Of a stretch of DNA of 64,000 nt, positions 13,604-43,035 are shown piece by piece; the stretch's first letter is position 1, and every line of letters begins with the position of its first letter. Where the stretch lies: positions 2,744 through 66,743 of IMG/VR virus record IMGVR_UViG_3300033067_001435; one strand, written 5' to 3'. A program made the position numbers and the translations under genes. Below the pieces are notes generated by a model. It made no database searches and had not been told where the DNA came from. It was given only the letters and a program-made list of their open reading frames with translations. The stretch comes from a virus. Its lineage: Duplodnaviria > Caudoviricetes.

Positions 13604-13617
13604 TGAATATTAACATT

Positions 13618-15072
13618 TTAAAATTCGAGTTTCATTTTAATTAACGCTTCTTTAGTAAATTTCTTTTGAAGTGGTTTACTTAATTTACCAACAGCAAGTA
13701 AATCTTTATTATCATTGTAAAGTCCTACTGTTGTGATGTAAATTGTTGGATCACCAATCATTGTTGGTTCTGCTAAGTCTCCTTCACTTCCTGTTACAAA
13801 AGTTGGGTTATTAGTAAAGTTATACTCCTGATTCTTTACTCTAACAAAGTAATGTGTTGATTTAACCTTTTCACCACTTCTACCTTGGAATCCTAACCTG
13901 TCACCACTTGCATCTGTATAAAGGGCTGAACCTGATAATGATGTAAATAACTTATATGCATTATCACCGGGAATTTCTGATCCAGTTACTGTTAAAAATG
14001 ATGCAGACATGTCAAGTCTATTTCCATCAAGTACAATTACACCTAATCTTCTATAAAGTTTTCCATAATAATGTGGTGCTGAACTGTTATAAATACCATC
14101 TTCAAGTGTTCCTGATACAATGTTGTAAACTTCACCGGCTGTCGTGACATCTGCTGATGCTACTCTACTGTCATCTACTAATCTTGTTACTGCTTGTGTT
14201 GGGAATACACTTACATTAGAACCTGTCCATGAGTTTTGGGTATGTGTGGCTAACCATTGTGAACCCGATAACCTTTGAAGATTTATTTCAAGGTTCCCTT
14301 CATCAATAAATTCACGCATACGCGCTCTATTTACATTTATAACATAAATTGAATCAGTTGCTGTTCCACCAATTACAAATCTTTGTTCATCTGCCTCAAG
14401 ACATAATTGCTTATATTGACCATAAATTGCACGGCTTGGTGTATCATTTATTTGACCACCTTCATCTGCTGAACCTGATCCTTGTTTGTGTCCCCAAGCA
14501 ACAGAAAATTGTGCCTCACTACCACATTCACCAGAACCGCTATTGAAAATTTCATAATAATATCTTTGTTGTGTTGAATTTTGTGCTGATGATGTGTAGA
14601 AAGTTAATAAGTTGCCTACATTTCCGCTCCATAAAGCACGAGTTATTGTTTCCTGTTGATTTGGTACAATATCACCTGTTTCGAACCTTGTCCAAATTCT
14701 ACCAGAACCTAAATTAGATGGTGGAAGAGGTGCTGGAAAGGTTGGAGTTGTTGGTAGTAATGGTCCGCCGGTTTGTCCTTCGGTTGGTTTAATGGTTCCT
14801 GTGTCTAATGATGGACCTGTTGGGATAACATTATGAACAACATTATTTTCATCAAGAACTAAGAAATCACCTTTAGTGGTTTCAAATCCTGAAACACTTA
14901 TTCCCGGTATGATTTGCTTTGTGGTTGGTTGCGTATTTTGTAACACACTTGGATCATTAGATACAGGAATTAATGTTAATCCTGCTCCTTCCATCTTAGA
15001 TTTCTGTGATTCATCTAACTTTTGGACCGTTCCACCTGTATTAGTAGCCACACCTTTTTTTATAAATGCCAT
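13618..15072 (-). CDS. Virion structural protein (tail/baseplate associated), paralogue of 11388-13007
   Basis: Long aligned core (AIYGQYKQLCLE, DEGNLEINL, RVKNQEYNFTNNP); C-terminal VGLYNDNKDLLAVGKLSKP. Confidence 0.75.
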   Translation of the reverse strand: MAFIKKGVATNTGGTVQKLDESQKSKMEGAGLTLIPVSNDPSVLQNTQPTTKQIIPGISVSGFETTKGDFLVLDENNVVHNVIPTGPSLDTGTIKPTEGQTGGPLLPTTPTFPAPLPPSNLGSGRIWTRFETGDIVPNQQETITRALWSGNVGNLLTFYTSSAQNSTQQRYYYEIFNSGSGECGSEAQFSVAWGHKQGSGSADEGGQINDTPSRAIYGQYKQLCLEADEQRFVIGGTATDSIYVINVNRARMREFIDEGNLEINLQRLSGSQWLATHTQNSWTGSNVSVFPTQAVTRLVDDSRVASADVTTAGEVYNIVSGTLEDGIYNSSAPHYYGKLYRRLGVIVLDGNRLDMSASFLTVTGSEIPGDNAYKLFTSLSGSALYTDASGDRLGFQGRSGEKVKSTHYFVRVKNQEYNFTNNPTFVTGSEGDLAEPTMIGDPTIYITTVGLYNDNKDLLAVGKLSKPLQKKFTKEALIKMKLEF

Positions 15073-15096
15073 TTTTTATTTTCCTATTTTAAAATT

Positions 15097-15781: not shown

Positions 15782-16735
15782 TTATGGAAGTTTAATTGGT
15801 GCATTACCAGTTAACGGAATGTTAGGTGTAGTATTTGTAGTCACTTTTCTAACTGTTATATTGATTACAACGTTACCACCAGTCTCATTACCAACTATGG
15901 TTAATGTTGTTGATCTTGCTGCAAGGTTCAACATGTTTGCTGTTATTACAATACTCTTTCCTGATACAGTTACTGATGCTCCAATTTCACTCTCAGTTAA
16001 TGGTGCTGCAACCATATTTCCAGTACCTGAATACTGTTGTCCGGGTGCTGCCTGATCTACATACATTGAACAAACATCACTATCTGCTAAAGTGAATGAA
16101 TATCCAAAGGTTGTATTTCCATCTGTGTAGTTAATTGTTTGTGGAGTTATTGTAATACTTTGGCCCGGACTCAATGTAAATGAAGTCTGTGGAACTGATA
16201 CAACTGGAATTCTAACTGTCTTTCTTGGAAGAGTGACAAGTTTATATTTCATATTCTGAGTTTCATCAGGTACAGCCTCTGTTATTGGCATACTTTCAAG
16301 TACAATCCCATAATAAGCATTTCCTAATGGATGATCAGGATTCCACAATGAATAATCTATTTCATCATCTGCAAGCGCAAAATAACTTACATTAAACTCA
16401 TTACGTCCACGACTAAGTAGTTCCCTACCTTTTCGAGTTAATCATTTTGTTATCCAAAAGGCTTTTTATCCTCTTGTTCTTACAATTTATTTCTTGTAAG
16501 GTCGGCGTACATTTTCAACCAATTCATAAATCTGGTTGTCGGAGACTCTTGGAAGTTTTCTTGCTCTCTTATTGCTCAACTTCTACGCTCTACAAGGAAT
16601 TTTGATTTAAACCCCTCTCGGTATTGCCATTTCAGGTTTCACCGATTTTCCCCAATTTTTACCCTATCATTACTGATTGGGGCGACATTAATCTATCGCA
16701 TCTACAGTTATACTGGAATTTGATAAATATCCCAT
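15782..16735 (-). CDS. Intron-split virion structural protein (exon 1 16735-16695, exon 2 16442-15782; 233 aa)
   Basis: Spliced reading MGYLSNSSITVDAI|LTRKGRELLSRGRNEFNVSYFALADDEIDYSLWNPDHP...; 41+661=702 nt, in frame. The ORF track shows only the TTG-started 3' part. Confidence 0.85.
16443..16694 (-). ncRNA. Group I self-splicing intron, 252 nt, no internal ORF
   Basis: 5' exon ends in U, intron ends in G. P1 GCGAU/GUCGC (U.G at splice site); P10 UUAAU/AUUAA; P2 with GUAA loop; P3 UUGGGGA/UCUCCGA; P4-P5 AUCGGUGAAACC...GGCAAUACCGAG; P7 GAGCGUA/UACGC; P7.1 GAAGUU/AACUUC; P8 CAACCA/UGGUUG; P9 CUUACAA/UUGUAAG. Confidence 0.92.
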
Positions 16736-16749
16736 TTTTATTTGTCCTT

Positions 16750-17676
16750 TTATGTTTTATTTAAAATAATATTCTGTTTGAACTCTTTAACTTCTCTATC
16801 AAACAAATATTTAAACTCTTTATTATTGTGTATTTTTGAATGACATGACCTGCACACAAATATAAGATTATCAAAACTATCATTAGTTTTATTTTCATCT
16901 ATGTGGTGTAAGCATAATATTTTAGTATCATCTTTACATTTAAAACACACTCCGCTCTGTTGTTCCCTTAAAATCTTCCTATACTCCTTATCATAGAACT
17001 TCTCTGAATATGGAATATCTTTATTGGGATTAAACTTATGATGATTCTCCCCAGACCTATTTCTAATTATTTCATTGGTATTTTTATTAAGCCCTTTACT
17101 CCAAGACACCGATTCTCCTGATGCAAATTTATCTAATTTTGTTTTAGAAGACTTAGTACCAACTCTTTTGTAAATATCCTCTAACTCTTCTTTTGATTTT
17201 ATTTTAGTATAGTGGGTGTATGTTCCTTCTTTTGCTTGTCTTCTTTTAGTTTCTGTCATTTTAATAACCCGTCTGTCTCTTTCCTCAGTAGACATACTCT
17301 TCATAAATTTAGACCTTCTATCCCGTTCCTCCAAAGTAAAGATATGAGGATTCTCAGATAAACTCTTTTTAACAGATTTTGATAGTTTAGTGAGAGCATT
17401 TTTATACTCTTCTGAATTTTTATCATAAACTGTTTGCCAAGTGCCACCACCAGAATGTCCTCTTACATATTCGTTTACTTCGTAACCATTCACTTTTAGA
17501 GATTTACCACATCCACAAGCACATGTTGGAATCACTCCATCAAGTAAATATTTTATTGTGTAATCTGATTTAGTAATACCGTGTTCAGATTGAATGTGTT
17601 GTGTAAAAGCGCCTACTGAGTTGTGATCTTTTCCGCAAACTTTACAGATATAATCTGTTAATAAATTCTTTGCCAT
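16750..17676 (-). CDS. Free-standing HNH homing endonuclease with N-terminal C2H2 zinc finger
   Basis: CKVC...HIQSEH, CACGCG, C-terminal CFKC...LHHIDENKTNDSFDNLIFVCRSCHSKIH. Confidence 0.85.
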   Translation of the reverse strand: MAKNLLTDYICKVCGKDHNSVGAFTQHIQSEHGITKSDYTIKYLLDGVIPTCACGCGKSLKVNGYEVNEYVRGHSGGGTWQTVYDKNSEEYKNALTKLSKSVKKSLSENPHIFTLEERDRRSKFMKSMSTEERDRRVIKMTETKRRQAKEGTYTHYTKIKSKEELEDIYKRVGTKSSKTKLDKFASGESVSWSKGLNKNTNEIIRNRSGENHHKFNPNKDIPYSEKFYDKEYRKILREQQSGVCFKCKDDTKILCLHHIDENKTNDSFDNLIFVCRSCHSKIHNNKEFKYLFDREVKEFKQNIILNKT

Positions 17677-17700
17677 TATTTTAAAATTAAGTTGTTATTT

Positions 17701-17710
17701 CATAAATATC
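17701..17710 (-). promoter_or_regulatory. Candidate late promoter GATATTTATG
   Basis: 25 nt upstream of HNH start; motif recurs. Confidence 0.4.
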
Positions 17711-24606: not shown

Positions 24607-25423
24607 TATTTAGTGCGGCTATTGCTGCTTCTGCTGCTGCTTGAGCAGCGTTTGCCTGTGCTATGGCTGCCTGACTTGCCGCTTCTGCTGCTTGTGCTTG
24701 TGCTTTTGCAGCATCTGCTGCCGCTTTATCTGCTGCTGCTTGAGCCTTAACTGTATCTATTTGCTGTTGTGCTGCTGCCGTTGCTGCACTTGCTATTGCT
24801 GCTCCTGATTTTACATTTGCATCCAACTGCTTTAATAACTCTGAGTTTGTTTTATCACTCATGTCCGCATTCCAAGCAGTTGATTTATCTGGTATTATAT
24901 CAGTTGCCTCTTCTATCTGTTCACATTGTGATTCTGGAATTACTCTAACAGACAATAAAGTTATTCCACGTTGAGCCAACATTACTTCAAGTGTTTTGTA
25001 GTTTGGTATCTTTTTCTTCTTACCATCTTCTATTATCCAGTATTGATAATTTTCTTTTGGTTGTGGAAGGGAATCTTTATCAAAACATCTAAATATTGAA
25101 CCTTCAATTAATGTAAATTTATCTGGTTCAATTACTTGAGGTGGAATAAAATATGAAAAGGTTGTATCAGTATAGTCCTTTAAGTTTTGATCAGTTACAA
25201 ATACCTTTTTTGGTATGTAGTTTAAGTAAACCTTATCTTTGTTTGTTGGTAATTCATATGCGCCCGCTCCATTCCTCTTTGACAAGGTGTAATTCCTTGC
25301 ATTTATACCATCCTGAGAAATAAAGTCATAAGTTTGGCCTTCAATAGGTATAACATATTGAAGTAGTTTGGCATTTGACGTAAATGCATCAAGATATGTT
25401 ATGTCATTTATTATTGTTTTCAA
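24602..25423 (-). CDS. Hypothetical virion-associated protein with Ala/Gln-rich C-terminal coiled coil
   Basis: 273 aa; AAAQQQ...AAEAAIAALNS tail. Confidence 0.65.
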   Translation of the reverse strand: MKTIINDITYLDAFTSNAKLLQYVIPIEGQTYDFISQDGINARNYTLSKRNGAGAYELPTNKDKVYLNYIPKKVFVTDQNLKDYTDTTFSYFIPPQVIEPDKFTLIEGSIFRCFDKDSLPQPKENYQYWIIEDGKKKKIPNYKTLEVMLAQRGITLLSVRVIPESQCEQIEEATDIIPDKSTAWNADMSDKTNSELLKQLDANVKSGAAIASAATAAAQQQIDTVKAQAAADKAAADAAKAQAQAAEAASQAAIAQANAAQAAAEAAIAALNS

Positions 25424-26178
25424 TTAACTTCCTCACAATAGTTCCAGTCTTTGAATTTCGGGTTTTTAGAACTAATACGAAGACTTAAAGTGGTATAGGG
25501 TATTTTTAATTGTGAGGATGCATCTTTTCTGGATGTATAAAATACTCCATTTATAACACAAGGTTTTCTATTTGGGTTATTTAGTGATATTTTAATCTTA
25601 GTTACTTCTTCCCTTTTTCGTTTAAACATATGACTATCCTCTCCACATCTTTTCCCTTTGCTGGCCTCACTTATCTTCTGTTTGGTTTTCTCTAAATGCC
25701 TTTTTCCAAATAAATAATGCTTTTCCCCACGAGTTTTTCCCTTCAAAGATTTACTTTGGTTTATTTTCGTTTCTACTGAGGAAGTTTTTCCAAAATTATG
25801 ATTTTTTTCTCCTAACTGTGCTTCACTCATCTTTTTCTTAGTTTCTTCTGAATGGGTACATTCATTATCGCCACCAGTTCTTGTGTTGTAGCATTCTTCA
25901 AGATTAACCATTTCTAAGGTAACTACATCTCTTTCGTGATCAGAGGCTTCTTTACGGGTTGGATAATCTGCTATTATTTCTTTGGTAAAATTACTTTTTC
26001 CGTACTTTTTAATAGCCTTTATCATAGTTCGACCACTTCCTAAATAACCATCTTCAAGGTTATTTGTTGAGTGAATTCCGTAGTAGTATTTACCGTTTAA
26101 AGTATTAGTTGTTTTATAAAAACAATTGTGCTTCTTTTCCATATTACCCTCTTTGTATTCTAAATATGTAATTTTCAT
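25420..26178 (-). CDS. GIY-YIG (Seg-like) homing endonuclease with NUMOD3 repeats
   Basis: CFYKTTNTLNGKYYYGIH...YLGSG, YNTRTGG, HSEETKKKMSEA...NHNFGK; probable start MEKK 26142. Confidence 0.85.
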   Translation of the reverse strand: MKITYLEYKEGNMEKKHNCFYKTTNTLNGKYYYGIHSTNNLEDGYLGSGRTMIKAIKKYGKSNFTKEIIADYPTRKEASDHERDVVTLEMVNLEECYNTRTGGDNECTHSEETKKKMSEAQLGEKNHNFGKTSSVETKINQSKSLKGKTRGEKHYLFGKRHLEKTKQKISEASKGKRCGEDSHMFKRKREEVTKIKISLNNPNRKPCVINGVFYTSRKDASSQLKIPYTTLSLRISSKNPKFKDWNYCEEVN

Positions 26179-27947: not shown

Positions 27948-29830
27948 ATTTCTACTGCTCGAATCAAAATATCACGTTTAGGAAAAGGGATTCTAAATAA
28001 ACTTGGATCAAGACTTGGATATAATATATCCCCTCTTGTTGCTGTTTTTAAATCATACTGGTTTCCACTATATCCTGAATTCTGATCTACTTTATTTATA
28101 AATTCTATTTTTTGTATTGATTGTACTCCATCTACTTTATCCAATTCATTTCTAATTGAAGATAAAAGTATTGGTTGGTTTATTTGTAGTTTTTCTGGCT
28201 TAAATAGTTCAATTAACTTTTCACTACATTTTAATAGAACCTCGTTGCTATTTTCATTTGGCCTAACAATTACGTCCACATTAATTCCCAAATCTATCAA
28301 AAATGGGTCTTTGATGTTTATTGCATCAGTCATAAGCCTATACTGCTTTAAATACTGCCTCAAGTTCTCTTTAATTGCTTCATTTGCTGGGATTGGGTTT
28401 CCAAGACTATCAGCAGCAAGGATGTAAAGGTTCAACGCAAATGGATTTGGTGTTCTCTCTTCGTTCCACTGTCCTAATTGAAAATCCTGTTCAACGTATG
28501 CCTTTGATATTCCGCCATATTTAGCAGGCATCGCAAAACATCTAAGTATATAATCTTCCTTAGTAACTGCCCTGTTTTGTGCAGCAAAGTTTGCCATTGC
28601 TTCCTGACGAATGTTATCCAGAGCCTTTCTATTTTGTCCGCCGAATGCTGGATAAGGATTATTTATTGACAACGAATTCTTTATGGTTTGAAGAACTGTA
28701 GAATCTGTTGAATCAATTGGGTCAATTATTTCGCTGGTTGTAATATCATTTATAGTGTTCGATGAAACATTATCTACAATACCATTTGCTACTGCATATT
28801 GAACTGTTAATATTGTATTGGCTGGAACACTCCCATATGTTCTTGTATATAAGAAGTTCATTGGATCAATGCTCACATCTACAACCCTTTCAAAATAATT
28901 AAGCCCTAATCCTACATTCATTGGATTTGGAACTATTTCCTCATCTGCTTCACTACTCAATCCTGAACCAAATTGTATTTCAGTAAAATCATCTTTCCTT
29001 AACCTTGATACGAACCTTCTTTCTGTTTGTTTATAGCAAAGTATATATGGAACTGAACTTCTATACTGGCTTAGTTTTGGATCGTTATATGGAAGGTTTC
29101 TAACTGATATTGGGACTAAATCTTGTGCCAAATACGGTACTTCATACCAAGTATTATTATCACTATCTGTAACCTTTACAACTTCTGTTACATTATCTTC
29201 ATCCAGTACAATTTTATCGTAAATTTTTGGATCAGAGAATTGGAATGTTTTGGTTTTTAATTCACCACTAACTGCTCGAACCTTTTTCTTCAATAGATAA
29301 TACTCTATTGCTCCATCACCAGTCACAGAATAAACTGTAATTGTAGTTGGATCAAAACTTGAACTGAATCTGAAATCTATTGCATCTTTAGTGTAAAATG
29401 GAACTGCATCTTTATCAGATGTAGCCACTTGCATATTCTCCTTTATATAGAGACCATACCTAAAATCTGGTTTTGTATTTGTACCAGAGCCAACTGATGG
29501 AACCAATTGAAACACATCTAAATCTACTGATGCCGGGACGACTGTTTTTGCCTTATATCCCATCCCCTGAGAAAGGTTGTATAGATTTATTCTCTCTTCT
29601 ACATTTGATAGTAGAGATTCTTGCAGATTTACGTCAGCAAAGAAGGCTAATGCATCGCCAACATAAGAAGCCATCTCGATCATCATCGTTCCCGGAGAAG
29701 CCTCATTAAAATCTGAAACTGTATTAGGAAAATATTGCTTTGCATGATTTATCAAAGCAATACGAAATTCTGCGAAATCCTTATTTACATAACTTACGTT
29801 TCTTTTATATCTACTATTAAGCATTGCCAT
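27944..29830 (-). CDS. Baseplate wedge subunit (T4 gp6/baseplate J-like)
   Basis: KDFAEFR, SDFNEASPG, EIQFGSG, AFGGQ, QNRAVTKEDY. Confidence 0.85.
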   Translation of the reverse strand: MAMLNSRYKRNVSYVNKDFAEFRIALINHAKQYFPNTVSDFNEASPGTMMIEMASYVGDALAFFADVNLQESLLSNVEERINLYNLSQGMGYKAKTVVPASVDLDVFQLVPSVGSGTNTKPDFRYGLYIKENMQVATSDKDAVPFYTKDAIDFRFSSSFDPTTITVYSVTGDGAIEYYLLKKKVRAVSGELKTKTFQFSDPKIYDKIVLDEDNVTEVVKVTDSDNNTWYEVPYLAQDLVPISVRNLPYNDPKLSQYRSSVPYILCYKQTERRFVSRLRKDDFTEIQFGSGLSSEADEEIVPNPMNVGLGLNYFERVVDVSIDPMNFLYTRTYGSVPANTILTVQYAVANGIVDNVSSNTINDITTSEIIDPIDSTDSTVLQTIKNSLSINNPYPAFGGQNRKALDNIRQEAMANFAAQNRAVTKEDYILRCFAMPAKYGGISKAYVEQDFQLGQWNEERTPNPFALNLYILAADSLGNPIPANEAIKENLRQYLKQYRLMTDAINIKDPFLIDLGINVDVIVRPNENSNEVLLKCSEKLIELFKPEKLQINQPILLSSIRNELDKVDGVQSIQKIEFINKVDQNSGYSGNQYDLKTATRGDILYPSLDPSLFRIPFPKRDILIRAVEI

Positions 29831-30845
29831 GACTATACTCTCCCTTCTTTATTTTAAGTCTAACCACATCCACGCTAACCCCCAATTCTACTGATAACTC
29901 TTTTATAGTACCATAAACTCGTCCAGTTACATGGTCTATAACTTTTTTAGCATTTGGGTTTTTAGAACCTGATTTATCCCACCTACCTACATTAGTGTAG
30001 TCTTTTTTTAATCCCTTTAAGTGGTCGGTATTTTCTAACTTTCGTCCCCTTAGAGTATTTCCTATTTTTACTCCTGCGCACTTTTTGCATACACAACTTA
30101 AATTATGACTATCTAATACACTGCTCCTTGTTGTGTAGTACATCACTGTGTTACAATTTGGGCAGTGTCTTGAAAATTTTTTATTATTAGTTTCTGAAAC
30201 CCTACTAACTCCGTCAGGTAGTGGCCACCTTTTTAACGAGATTACTCTATTTATTTCTTTTATTTTCATCCTTCTATCCTCAGATACTGTGTATTTTTTA
30301 CCGTAGTTTGGATTTCCACTACCTTTCATTCTTTCAGAGTGTTTTTTGTTTTGTTGCTCACTGTGTATTCTGTTAGATTGTATGCTACTTATTTTATTTT
30401 TAACTTCCTCAGTATGTTTTTTACCATACATAGGGTTTCCCTCACCAATCATAGCATCCTTTGTATATTCATTGGCTGATTTCCAGAAATCTAATAAATA
30501 AGTTTCAATATTCTCTCCAAAAAGCCTTTTCAAGGTTCTTCTTGCGACTCTTCTTATTAAGTTCCCAGATGAAATATTATACTTATACTCGTTTGATTTT
30601 CTATCAAAACACTCAGCAAGTATAATATGTGCTTTAAAATGGTCTTCGGGTGTAAGTATGATAAAATTATCTGACTCATTACTCCCGCCCATGAAGACTG
30701 GGAGTATGTGATGCTTGTGTTTGGCATACGACTCTATGTCCTTTTGCCTGCACTCAAGCAAAAAGTCTTCATAAGGCTTTAGCCTATCAACATCATAACC
30801 GTTTTTTTGAAAATGCACTAACAAGGTACTTCCTCCAATTTCCAT
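29817..30845 (-). CDS. Free-standing HNH homing endonuclease with NUMOD3 and C-terminal HTH
   Basis: HKHHILPVFMGGSNESDNFIILTPEDHFKAH, GEGNPMYGKKHTEE, KVIDHVTGRVYGTIKE. Confidence 0.85.
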   Translation of the reverse strand: MEIGGSTLLVHFQKNGYDVDRLKPYEDFLLECRQKDIESYAKHKHHILPVFMGGSNESDNFIILTPEDHFKAHIILAECFDRKSNEYKYNISSGNLIRRVARRTLKRLFGENIETYLLDFWKSANEYTKDAMIGEGNPMYGKKHTEEVKNKISSIQSNRIHSEQQNKKHSERMKGSGNPNYGKKYTVSEDRRMKIKEINRVISLKRWPLPDGVSRVSETNNKKFSRHCPNCNTVMYYTTRSSVLDSHNLSCVCKKCAGVKIGNTLRGRKLENTDHLKGLKKDYTNVGRWDKSGSKNPNAKKVIDHVTGRVYGTIKELSVELGVSVDVVRLKIKKGEYSHGNA

Positions 30846-42462: not shown

Positions 42463-43017
42463 TTATACCCCTTGACAGAGGTAATTCGCTGCCTTACAAG
42501 CAATCTGGACATCAGTCCAATCGTTGCCTACCTTAACCATATCACCAATGTCTGATTTTACAGGATAGTTTCGGTTATATGGAATCTTTGCTAAACATTG
42601 GTAGCCAGCAGATGTTGCCCATCCTTTTGTTGCTGGAATCAATGGCTTAGAAAGAGTTTCTGCAATGTTGTTGTAGTCCAATTCGATGATGATGTCATCA
42701 CGAGTGAACACATTTTTTTCAACAAGATACTCAGCAAGTGCCATAGATAATTCACACTCCTTCCACAATTTCAAAAACACATCCGGCTTACCGTCTGACT
42801 TTCTGAAACTTGGAACTGTTTCTTTTGTGTAAACAAAGTGAACACCTTGCTTTCCATACCTGAACGCAACAACACTGAAATAGTGAATATTTCCTGCCAA
42901 CGAAATGGAGTCAGTTCCTACAAACACCTTCAAATCGTTGTGTGCTACTTTCTGCTCTATGCAGTGTTGTAGCAGGTCAATTGGGATTTTGTTGTGTTTA
43001 AAGATTCTTTTTTCCAT
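42463..43017 (-). CDS. RNase H-like YkuK (DUF458) family protein
   Basis: VFVGTDS, LWKECELS, IELDYN, AANYLC. Confidence 0.75.
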   Translation of the reverse strand: MEKRIFKHNKIPIDLLQHCIEQKVAHNDLKVFVGTDSISLAGNIHYFSVVAFRYGKQGVHFVYTKETVPSFRKSDGKPDVFLKLWKECELSMALAEYLVEKNVFTRDDIIIELDYNNIAETLSKPLIPATKGWATSAGYQCLAKIPYNRNYPVKSDIGDMVKVGNDWTDVQIACKAANYLCQGV

Positions 43018-43035
43018 TTTAAAATTGTTTAAGTG

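Follow-up and report, generated by a model that had tools for sequence, protein, structure and literature searches.

Organization of the locus

This report concerns a group I intron and the free-standing HNH nuclease gene next to it in a phage genome fragment, the IMG/VR virus record IMGVR_UViG_3300033067_001435 (Duplodnaviria; Caudoviricetes). We analysed a stretch of 64,000 nucleotides (nt) of this record (positions 2,744 to 66,743), which we call the window and whose coordinates are used throughout; the nuclease gene, both exons and the intron all lie on its minus strand. An upstream gene of 297 amino acids (aa) ends at 17709, and 32 nt further on the 308-aa open reading frame (ORF) of the HNH protein begins at 17676. 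The HNH gene in turn ends just short of a 233-aa target gene, which the intron interrupts 41 nt into its length. The parts of the locus are as follows.

16750..17676, minus strand: free-standing HNH gene, 308 aa, from the ORF call; stop codon TAA at 16752..16750
16736..16749, minus strand: spacer of 14 nt, AAGGACAAATAAAA, between the HNH stop codon and the target-gene ATG, containing a Shine-Dalgarno-like AAGGA
16695..16735, minus strand: exon 1, 41 nt (MGYLSNSSITVDA plus 2 nt), reading ATG...GCGAT; its last 5 nt, GCGAU in the RNA, form the 5' strand of P1
16443..16694, minus strand: IA-like group I intron without an ORF, 252 nt, with a terminal G
15782..16442, minus strand: exon 2 of the 233-aa target gene

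A group I intron that has no ORF and a free-standing endonuclease gene adjoining the interrupted gene make up the layout of a collaborative homing pair, the interpretation proposed in a preliminary description of this DNA that was made from the sequence alone. That description put the HNH stop 15 base pairs before exon 1, where we measure a spacer of 14 nt; its distance of 55 from the HNH stop to the intron insertion site agrees with our measurement (55 nt), and its exon junction, GTAGATGCGAT/ATTAACTCGA, is correct, splicing there restoring ...ITVDAILTRKGRELL.... It also found the intron to be free of ORFs, and indeed no sense-strand ORF of at least 40 aa lies inside it. The AAGGA(A/C)AA element before the target gene is conserved in relatives, whether a nuclease gene is present or not.

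Identity and fold of the intron

In-silico joining of the exons yields a 233-aa protein, MGYLSNSSITVDAILTRKGRELL..., which aligns without gaps across the junction with the uninterrupted homologues of Flavobacterium phage immuto and Microcystis phage Mel-JY01. The relatives surveyed here, which are metagenomic contigs, include 13 intronless alleles of the target gene. The elements of the fold that we could place on the sequence are these.

16682..16691, minus strand: internal guide, UUAAU (P10, pairing with exon 2 AUUAA) followed by GUCGC (P1), read from the sequence
16505..16588, minus strand: catalytic core, with covariation support
16584-16588, minus strand: 5' strand of P7, GCGUA
16552-16583, minus strand: P7.1 hairpin
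16539-16545, minus strand: 3' strand of P3
16516-16538, minus strand: P8
16510-16515, minus strand: J8/7, AAAAUG
16505-16509, minus strand: 3' strand of P7, UACGC

Covariation was assessed in an alignment of the window copy with seven full copies from the same site (L006, L009, L016, L017, L030, L032 and L038), scoring a fold model that comprises P1, P2 (with a GNRA loop), P3, P4, P5, P7, P7.1, P8, P9 and P9.1. Pairing holds in 98.7% of cells, with compensatory changes in 22 of the 57 pairs; none of 500 shuffles scored as high, and controls in which the model was slid along the alignment gave 33-42% paired. P1 joins exon GCGAU to guide GUCGC, the 5' splice site being marked by a U.G pair, and is paired in 100% of the sequences, covarying in L039 (exon GCUGU with guide GCAGC), while P10 covaries in L030 (GUGAU) and L032 (UAGU with ACUG). 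P7 also covaries (GCGUA/UACGC versus GCAUA/UAUGC), compensatory changes are found in P7.1 and P3, and the fold has a z-score of -3.75. On this evidence the insert is a group I intron with helices P1 to P9.1 and a P3/P7 pseudoknot, and self-splicing is predicted.

The order of elements in the core (P7, P7.1, the 3' strand of P3, P8, J8/7, the 3' strand of P7) agrees with the subgroup IA layout of T4 td and Twort. A P7.1 hairpin is present between P7 and the 3' strand of P3, the position where P7.1/P7.2 is the subgroup IA hallmark, and it is by this layout that we call the intron IA-like. Measured against the IA2 phage introns (T4 td and orf142 of Staphylococcus phage Twort), the window intron has in common a GNRA-capped P2, an A-rich J3/4 and a 3' tail ending ...AACAAAAUG, but differs in that no P7.2 hairpin was found in its fold. 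Our first manual fold had taken CAAGAG (16546-16551) and the CUUUUG near the 3' end as P7; the distant relatives show that P7 is GCGUA/UACGC, and CUUUUG is part of a local P9.1 hairpin.

The Rfam model RF00028 (Intron_gpI) gave no match to the window intron either at its gathering threshold or at E up to 10 (in a 601-base search). The same model also misses seven related loci, among them annotated split terminase and RecD genes (E up to 0.1), and because it fails on introns in annotated split genes its silence is uninformative about the window intron. At the DNA level the intron core shares 69-79% identity with introns of Staphylococcus, Bacillus, Clostridium and Arcanobacterium phages. These related introns split annotated terminase, RecD and tape-measure genes (the terminase and RecD cases being in Staphylococcus and Bacillus phages), and elsewhere carry endonucleases of their own, LAGLIDADG or NUMOD3, whereas the window copy is ORF-less. 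A 20-nt core pattern of the family occurs in more than 116 IMG/VR contigs, and the related loci comprise L023-L026 and L047-L162; a covariance model of the 3' half detected no second intron of the family in the window.

The HNH nuclease gene

The HNH protein has an N-terminal C2H2 zinc finger, a CxCGC motif, a helical middle region and a C-terminal HNH domain, of which two parts can be delimited closely.

17581..17652, minus strand: C2H2-type zinc finger YICKVCGKDHNSVGAFTQHIQSEH, presumed to bind DNA, from a profile match and weak Pfam zf-C2H2-type matches
16828..16947, minus strand: HNH core with a CxxC...CxxC zinc site (CFKC...CLHHIDENKTND..NLIFVCRSCHSKIH), from the alignment

Classical C2H2 fingers are matched in the PDB by a profile of the HNH family (E 1e-6), and PHROG HNH families match the protein at E 7.5e-8. 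With Pfam HNH (PF01844) the window protein scores 18.7 bits, below the cut-off of 21.4, while its L006 homologue scores 21.8 and exceeds it. Residues C244, C247, H257, H258, D260, N265, N270, C275, C278, H279 and H283, among them the His, Asn and His of catalysis and the cysteines of the zinc site, are invariant in 14 homologues that are 40-64% identical. The ratio of nonsynonymous to synonymous substitution rates (dN/dS) is 0.11-0.24, with dS saturated. By these signs the gene is intact and under purifying selection, and the nuclease looks active. The only structural matches of the HNH model are to the HNH cores of Cap5, IscB, McrA and Cas9, and Foldseek against the PDB at E up to 0.001 returned no full-length structural analogue. 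The family is small, with 11 matches among 5.8 billion clustered proteins.

Intron and nuclease among relatives

Target-gene loci were taken from IMG/VR, IMG/VR and the Joint Genome Institute (JGI) metagenomes were scanned with HNH profiles, and intron state was confirmed with the covariance model. Apart from the loci with a second type of nuclease, described below, three states were seen.

HNH gene and intron at the same site, in 8 of the 8 loci with this HNH: the window, L006, L009, L016, L030/L031, L032, L038, L039
Intron, no nuclease gene: L017
Neither intron nor nuclease gene: L008, L011, L012, L018, L020-L022, immuto, Mel-JY01

The preliminary description had pointed to relatives as the place to see whether intron and HNH gene keep company. 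They do: the intron is found at every locus that has this HNH, none of the 8 being intronless, and the close relatives L007 and L008, which are 95% identical to the window in the target protein, have neither HNH gene nor intron. In a maximum-likelihood phylogeny of the target protein there are 4 changes in each state, and all four independent contrasts agree in direction.

The HNH stop codon falls in a narrow interval at all 8 loci, from 14 nt upstream of the target-gene ATG to 32 nt inside the intron: it is 14 nt before the ATG in the window, L030 and L039 have it within exon 1, and in L032 it comes 32 nt into the intron. For this reason both the intron and the HNH gene could be co-converted from a break at the insertion site. 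The L032 gene (L032:3004-3828, on a 292-kilobase (kb) contig) lacks the N-terminal C2H2 finger, and its ORF reads across exon 1 and for 32 nt into the intron. The preliminary description had imagined the locus as a possible intermediate towards a composite mobile intron, an idea that this overlapping frame fits.

A second nuclease type in the same slot

The slot upstream of the target gene can also hold nucleases of a second type, which have the zinc finger, the CxCGC motif and the middle region in common with the HNH proteins (as in L010 and L013) and differ from them in the C-terminus. The second C-terminal domain is itself conserved (...YFADAY...IWIEFDE..H); it has no match in Pfam, PHROG, NCBIfam or PDB sequences, and the motif suggests something restriction-endonuclease-like. 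In 5 lineages this second type takes the HNH slot, and in each of them the neighbouring allele is intronless.

L010:2952-3923: second type, intact
L019:3036-3932: second type, intact
L007:3059-3923: second type, frameshifted
L013-15 (L015:2967-3233): C-terminal remnant of the second type
L163:1346-1855: second type, in a 484-kb uncultured phage

Since the HNH type comes with the intron and the second type with intronless alleles, the need for the intron tracks the HNH domain. Some members of the second family (P0017, P0019 and P0021) look like mosaics of the HNH and second types.

Separate histories of the intron and the HNH gene

The window, L009 and L006 form the closest trio of loci with both elements, and within it nucleotide identity is 96.8-97.6% for the intron, 77-83% for exon 2 and 65-71% for the HNH gene. 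Against the window the two relatives compare as follows.

L009: intron 97.6%, exon 2 77%, HNH gene 70%
L006: intron 96.8%, exon 2 83%, HNH gene 65%

Both exon 2 and the HNH gene have reached saturation at synonymous sites (proportion of synonymous differences 0.63-0.86), and the window and L009 genomes are 66-77% identical throughout 20 kb. Constraint does not account for the near identity of the intron, since its loops vary freely in more distant copies. An intron conserved at about 97% beside saturated exons and HNH genes was therefore exchanged recently, and alone, between diverged phages. An ORF-less intron that moves needs either a nuclease acting in trans or plain recombination. The resident HNH protein is the obvious candidate for mobilizing it, though the HNH gene stayed behind when the intron moved. 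The split histories would be reconciled by a cycle in which the intron is lost, self-cleavage follows and the intron is regained from a co-infecting phage.

One further locus, L038:532-2132, has an HNH gene identical to that of L006, while the protein sequence encoded by its exon 2 is 99% identical to the window's. Either natural recombination took place at the intron, or the assembly is chimeric across that conserved segment.

Proposed collaborative homing and its alternatives

Collaborative homing pairs a free-standing endonuclease, which cleaves alleles lacking the intron at the point of insertion, with an intron that confers immunity on its own genome (PMC3984707). We consider collaborative or trans homing the best reading of the intron and HNH gene, with a confidence that is about evenly balanced. 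The best explanation of the pair as an entity is that the two form one linked selfish cassette, the intron lying 41 nt into a conserved gene of the virion region and the HNH gene directly upstream of that gene. In a mixed infection the HNH protein would cut or nick the intronless alleles of the target gene, at the insertion site or a few tens of nt from it, in the segment encoding the conserved VDAILTRKGRE. Recombinational repair from the donor would then bring in a copy of the intron, in some cases along with the neighbouring HNH gene. As the intron interrupts the presumed recognition site, a carrier of the HNH gene would be spared cutting its own genome.

The collaborative homing of the preliminary description is supported in part, by the co-occurrence survey and by the signs of recent lateral movement of the intron, but several observations weigh against it. 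L017 retains the intron without any nuclease gene. The agreement of the contrasts, only four in number, gives p = 0.125 in a sign test, the lowest value reachable with four pairs, and linkage alone could produce the co-occurrence, the two elements being about 55 nt apart and replaced together. Within the closest trio no recent history unites the intron with the HNH gene, the last transfer of the intron having left the HNH gene behind, and no tract of flanking co-conversion extends beyond about 10 nt around the intron. A 252-nt segment that is 97% identical can, moreover, seed chimeric assemblies of metagenomic reads. The two other free-standing NUMOD3 endonuclease genes of the window could act on the intron in trans. 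Finally, where the HNH protein would cut, and whether intron-plus alleles would be immune to it, are points that we purely infer.

A more elaborate scenario, which we put forward tentatively and hold to be doubtful as a whole, would take in the second nuclease type. The slot upstream of the virion gene would be contested by two domain-swapped endonucleases with a common zinc-finger half. The HNH version would persist only with the ORF-less intron that splits its target and serves as the immunity element, and the non-HNH version with intronless alleles; the cassettes would replace each other between related phages, and a lost intron would be re-acquired laterally.

A possible objection is that the HNH protein acts elsewhere than at the insertion site. 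It would then be an intronless-homing enzyme in the manner of T4 MobE, with a target near its own slot (the 5' end of the gene or upstream of it). The intron would be passive, hitch-hiking and sometimes co-converted, and self-immunity would come from target polymorphism or from insertion of the nuclease gene. MobE and the nrdB intron of T4 are the precedent (PMC2790892). The HNH gene has diverged along with the genome backbone, as this explanation would have it, and the second nuclease type beside intronless alleles tells us that nucleases of the superfamily persist without an intron. The explanation predicts, however, genomes with the HNH gene and an intronless target, of which the 8 loci with this HNH include none, and the near absence of flanking co-conversion in the recent intron exchange mildly favours a break at the insertion site. 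We regard it as unlikely, if worth keeping in sight.

Another objection is that the intron and the HNH gene are independent selfish elements at a recombination hot spot, which came in separately and are kept together by their proximity of about 55 nt. The HNH protein would then have no action on the target gene, with the intron spreading by general recombination or through some other nuclease, for instance one of the NUMOD3 proteins encoded at 25420-26178 or 29817-30845. The decoupled histories of the two elements suit this explanation, as does an association that is non-significant after phylogenetic correction. It can also draw on the other endonuclease genes in the window, on the related introns elsewhere that carry unrelated endonucleases (LAGLIDADG and NUMOD3), and on the variability of the stretch that separates the 297-aa gene from the target gene, where L006, L007 and L009 have extra small ORFs. 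It does not explain why the switch of nuclease type follows intron state in 4 of 4 contrasts, with both types in the same linked slot, nor the purifying selection that maintains the HNH gene, and we think it rather improbable.

Endonuclease turnover (PMC10448857) would concern the origin of the arrangement and is compatible with present trans homing: the intron would have had its own endonuclease, since purged, and the upstream HNH gene would be a later arrival or would have moved out of the intron. Relatives of the intron do contain internal endonuclease ORFs, Bacillus phage PJN02 has ORFs near the intron 5' end, and the L032 HNH frame overlaps that end. The 8 introns at the same site, however, show no ORF remnant and have short P6 and P7.1 loops, and the N-terminal half that the HNH protein has in common with free-standing nucleases beside intronless alleles argues for a free-standing ancestry. 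We judge turnover to be very unlikely.

That the HNH protein serves some purpose other than homing (aiding splicing, for example, or the packaging or processing of DNA) is hardly credible: the purifying selection on the gene and its tight coupling to the start of the target gene would agree with such a role, but its distribution is patchy, with the close relatives L007 and L008 entirely without the gene, its family is tiny (those 11 matches), and its architecture is typical of homing endonucleases.

Comparison with known systems

The arrangement of intron and neighbouring nuclease is itself already known from S-PM2, T7-like phages, T4 and ICP1. The psbA intron of cyanophage S-PM2 and the free-standing F-CphI are the model for collaborative homing (Zeng, Bonocora and Shub 2009, reviewed in PMC3984707; for the F-CphI family, PMC6083498). 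F-CphI has an Endo VII-type catalytic motif and its cleavage at the insertion site was demonstrated, whereas the nuclease here is an HNH protein for which such cleavage is presumed. The target also differs, being a virion-region gene in place of psbA, with the nuclease gene upstream and abutting exon 1. DNA-polymerase introns of T3/T7-like phages with a free-standing HNH gene have been put forward as the way in which composite mobile introns arise (Bonocora and Shub 2009, cited in PMC3984707 and PMC10448857). Against that example, the window HNH protein belongs to another lineage (C2H2 finger, C-terminal zinc-type HNH, Cap5/IscB/McrA-like fold), and the host gene and the phage group differ.

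In T4 the adjacent free-standing HNH endonuclease MobE mobilizes the nrdB intron, which is unable to move alone (PMC2790892). The nick made by MobE lies away from the insertion site, and a defunct endonuclease ORF persists in the nrdB intron (PMC2790892), while the window intron has no ORF remnant. Vibrio phage ICP1 has a terminase intron with an adjacent T5orf172 endonuclease gene, and 'HEG islands' are described in the same paper (PMC10448857). The nuclease family and the gene differ in the window, and among its relatives two alternative nuclease types in one slot match the presence and absence of the intron. Introns in capsid and tail genes of cluster J mycobacteriophages likewise interrupt structural genes, in phages of a different host phylum, and a partnership with a neighbouring free-standing endonuclease is not part of their abstract-level account (PMC3706429).

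Collaborative homing is the leading idea for how mobile group I introns are assembled from a ribozyme and a free-standing nuclease, and very few cases are on record. The present locus would be a further case, from another phage group and another gene, with a new nuclease architecture (a C2H2 finger joined to HNH) and a target in the virion region. Its natural alleles make the idea testable, comprising intron with HNH gene, intron alone, intronless target with the sister nuclease, empty sites, and an HNH frame that overlaps the intron.

Expression signals, target gene and genomic context

The preliminary description had noted a late-like motif before the HNH gene.

17678..17688, minus strand: motif AATTTTAAAAT, 1 nt before the HNH ATG

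The motif is present there and is enriched in the window, with 4 copies against 1.1 expected, all on the minus strand (13615-13625, 15086-15096, 17678-17688 and 43016-43026), and 3 of the 4 copies precede virion-region ATGs by 1-13 nt. It is not, however, conserved upstream of the HNH gene in relatives. Scans for sigma-70 promoters and terminators did no better than with shuffled sequences.

The two other free-standing homing-endonuclease-like genes lie in the virion region as well (25420-26178 and 29817-30845, minus strand). One encodes NUMOD3 with an I-TevI-type DNA-binding tail (phrog_314, E 1.5e-44) and the other HNH with NUMOD3 (phrog_655); no introns of the window family were found near them. 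Between the 297-aa gene and the nuclease slot lies a variable region, with different small ORFs in each close relative (L006:531-1097, L009:1617-2530 and L007:2697-3035).

The target protein is conserved over its N-terminal ~90 aa, and an AlphaFold model gives its C-terminal part as an immunoglobulin (Ig)-like beta-sandwich. The model matches BIG2-like, decoration and tail proteins in BFVD, confidently only for the C-terminal Ig-like domain. The protein has no Pfam or PHROG match, and the Atlas gave unnamed viral clusters only. Genes neighbouring the target gene have baseplate-wedge PHROG matches, and together with the modelled Ig-like domain they make it plausible that the target is a virion gene. 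Homologues in Flavobacterium phages likewise point to a plausible Bacteroidota host. Two diverged alleles of the target gene (L039:1820-1860 and L163:1955-1965) have ATC or ATT in place of the ATG of MGYL, which may be a non-canonical start or decay.

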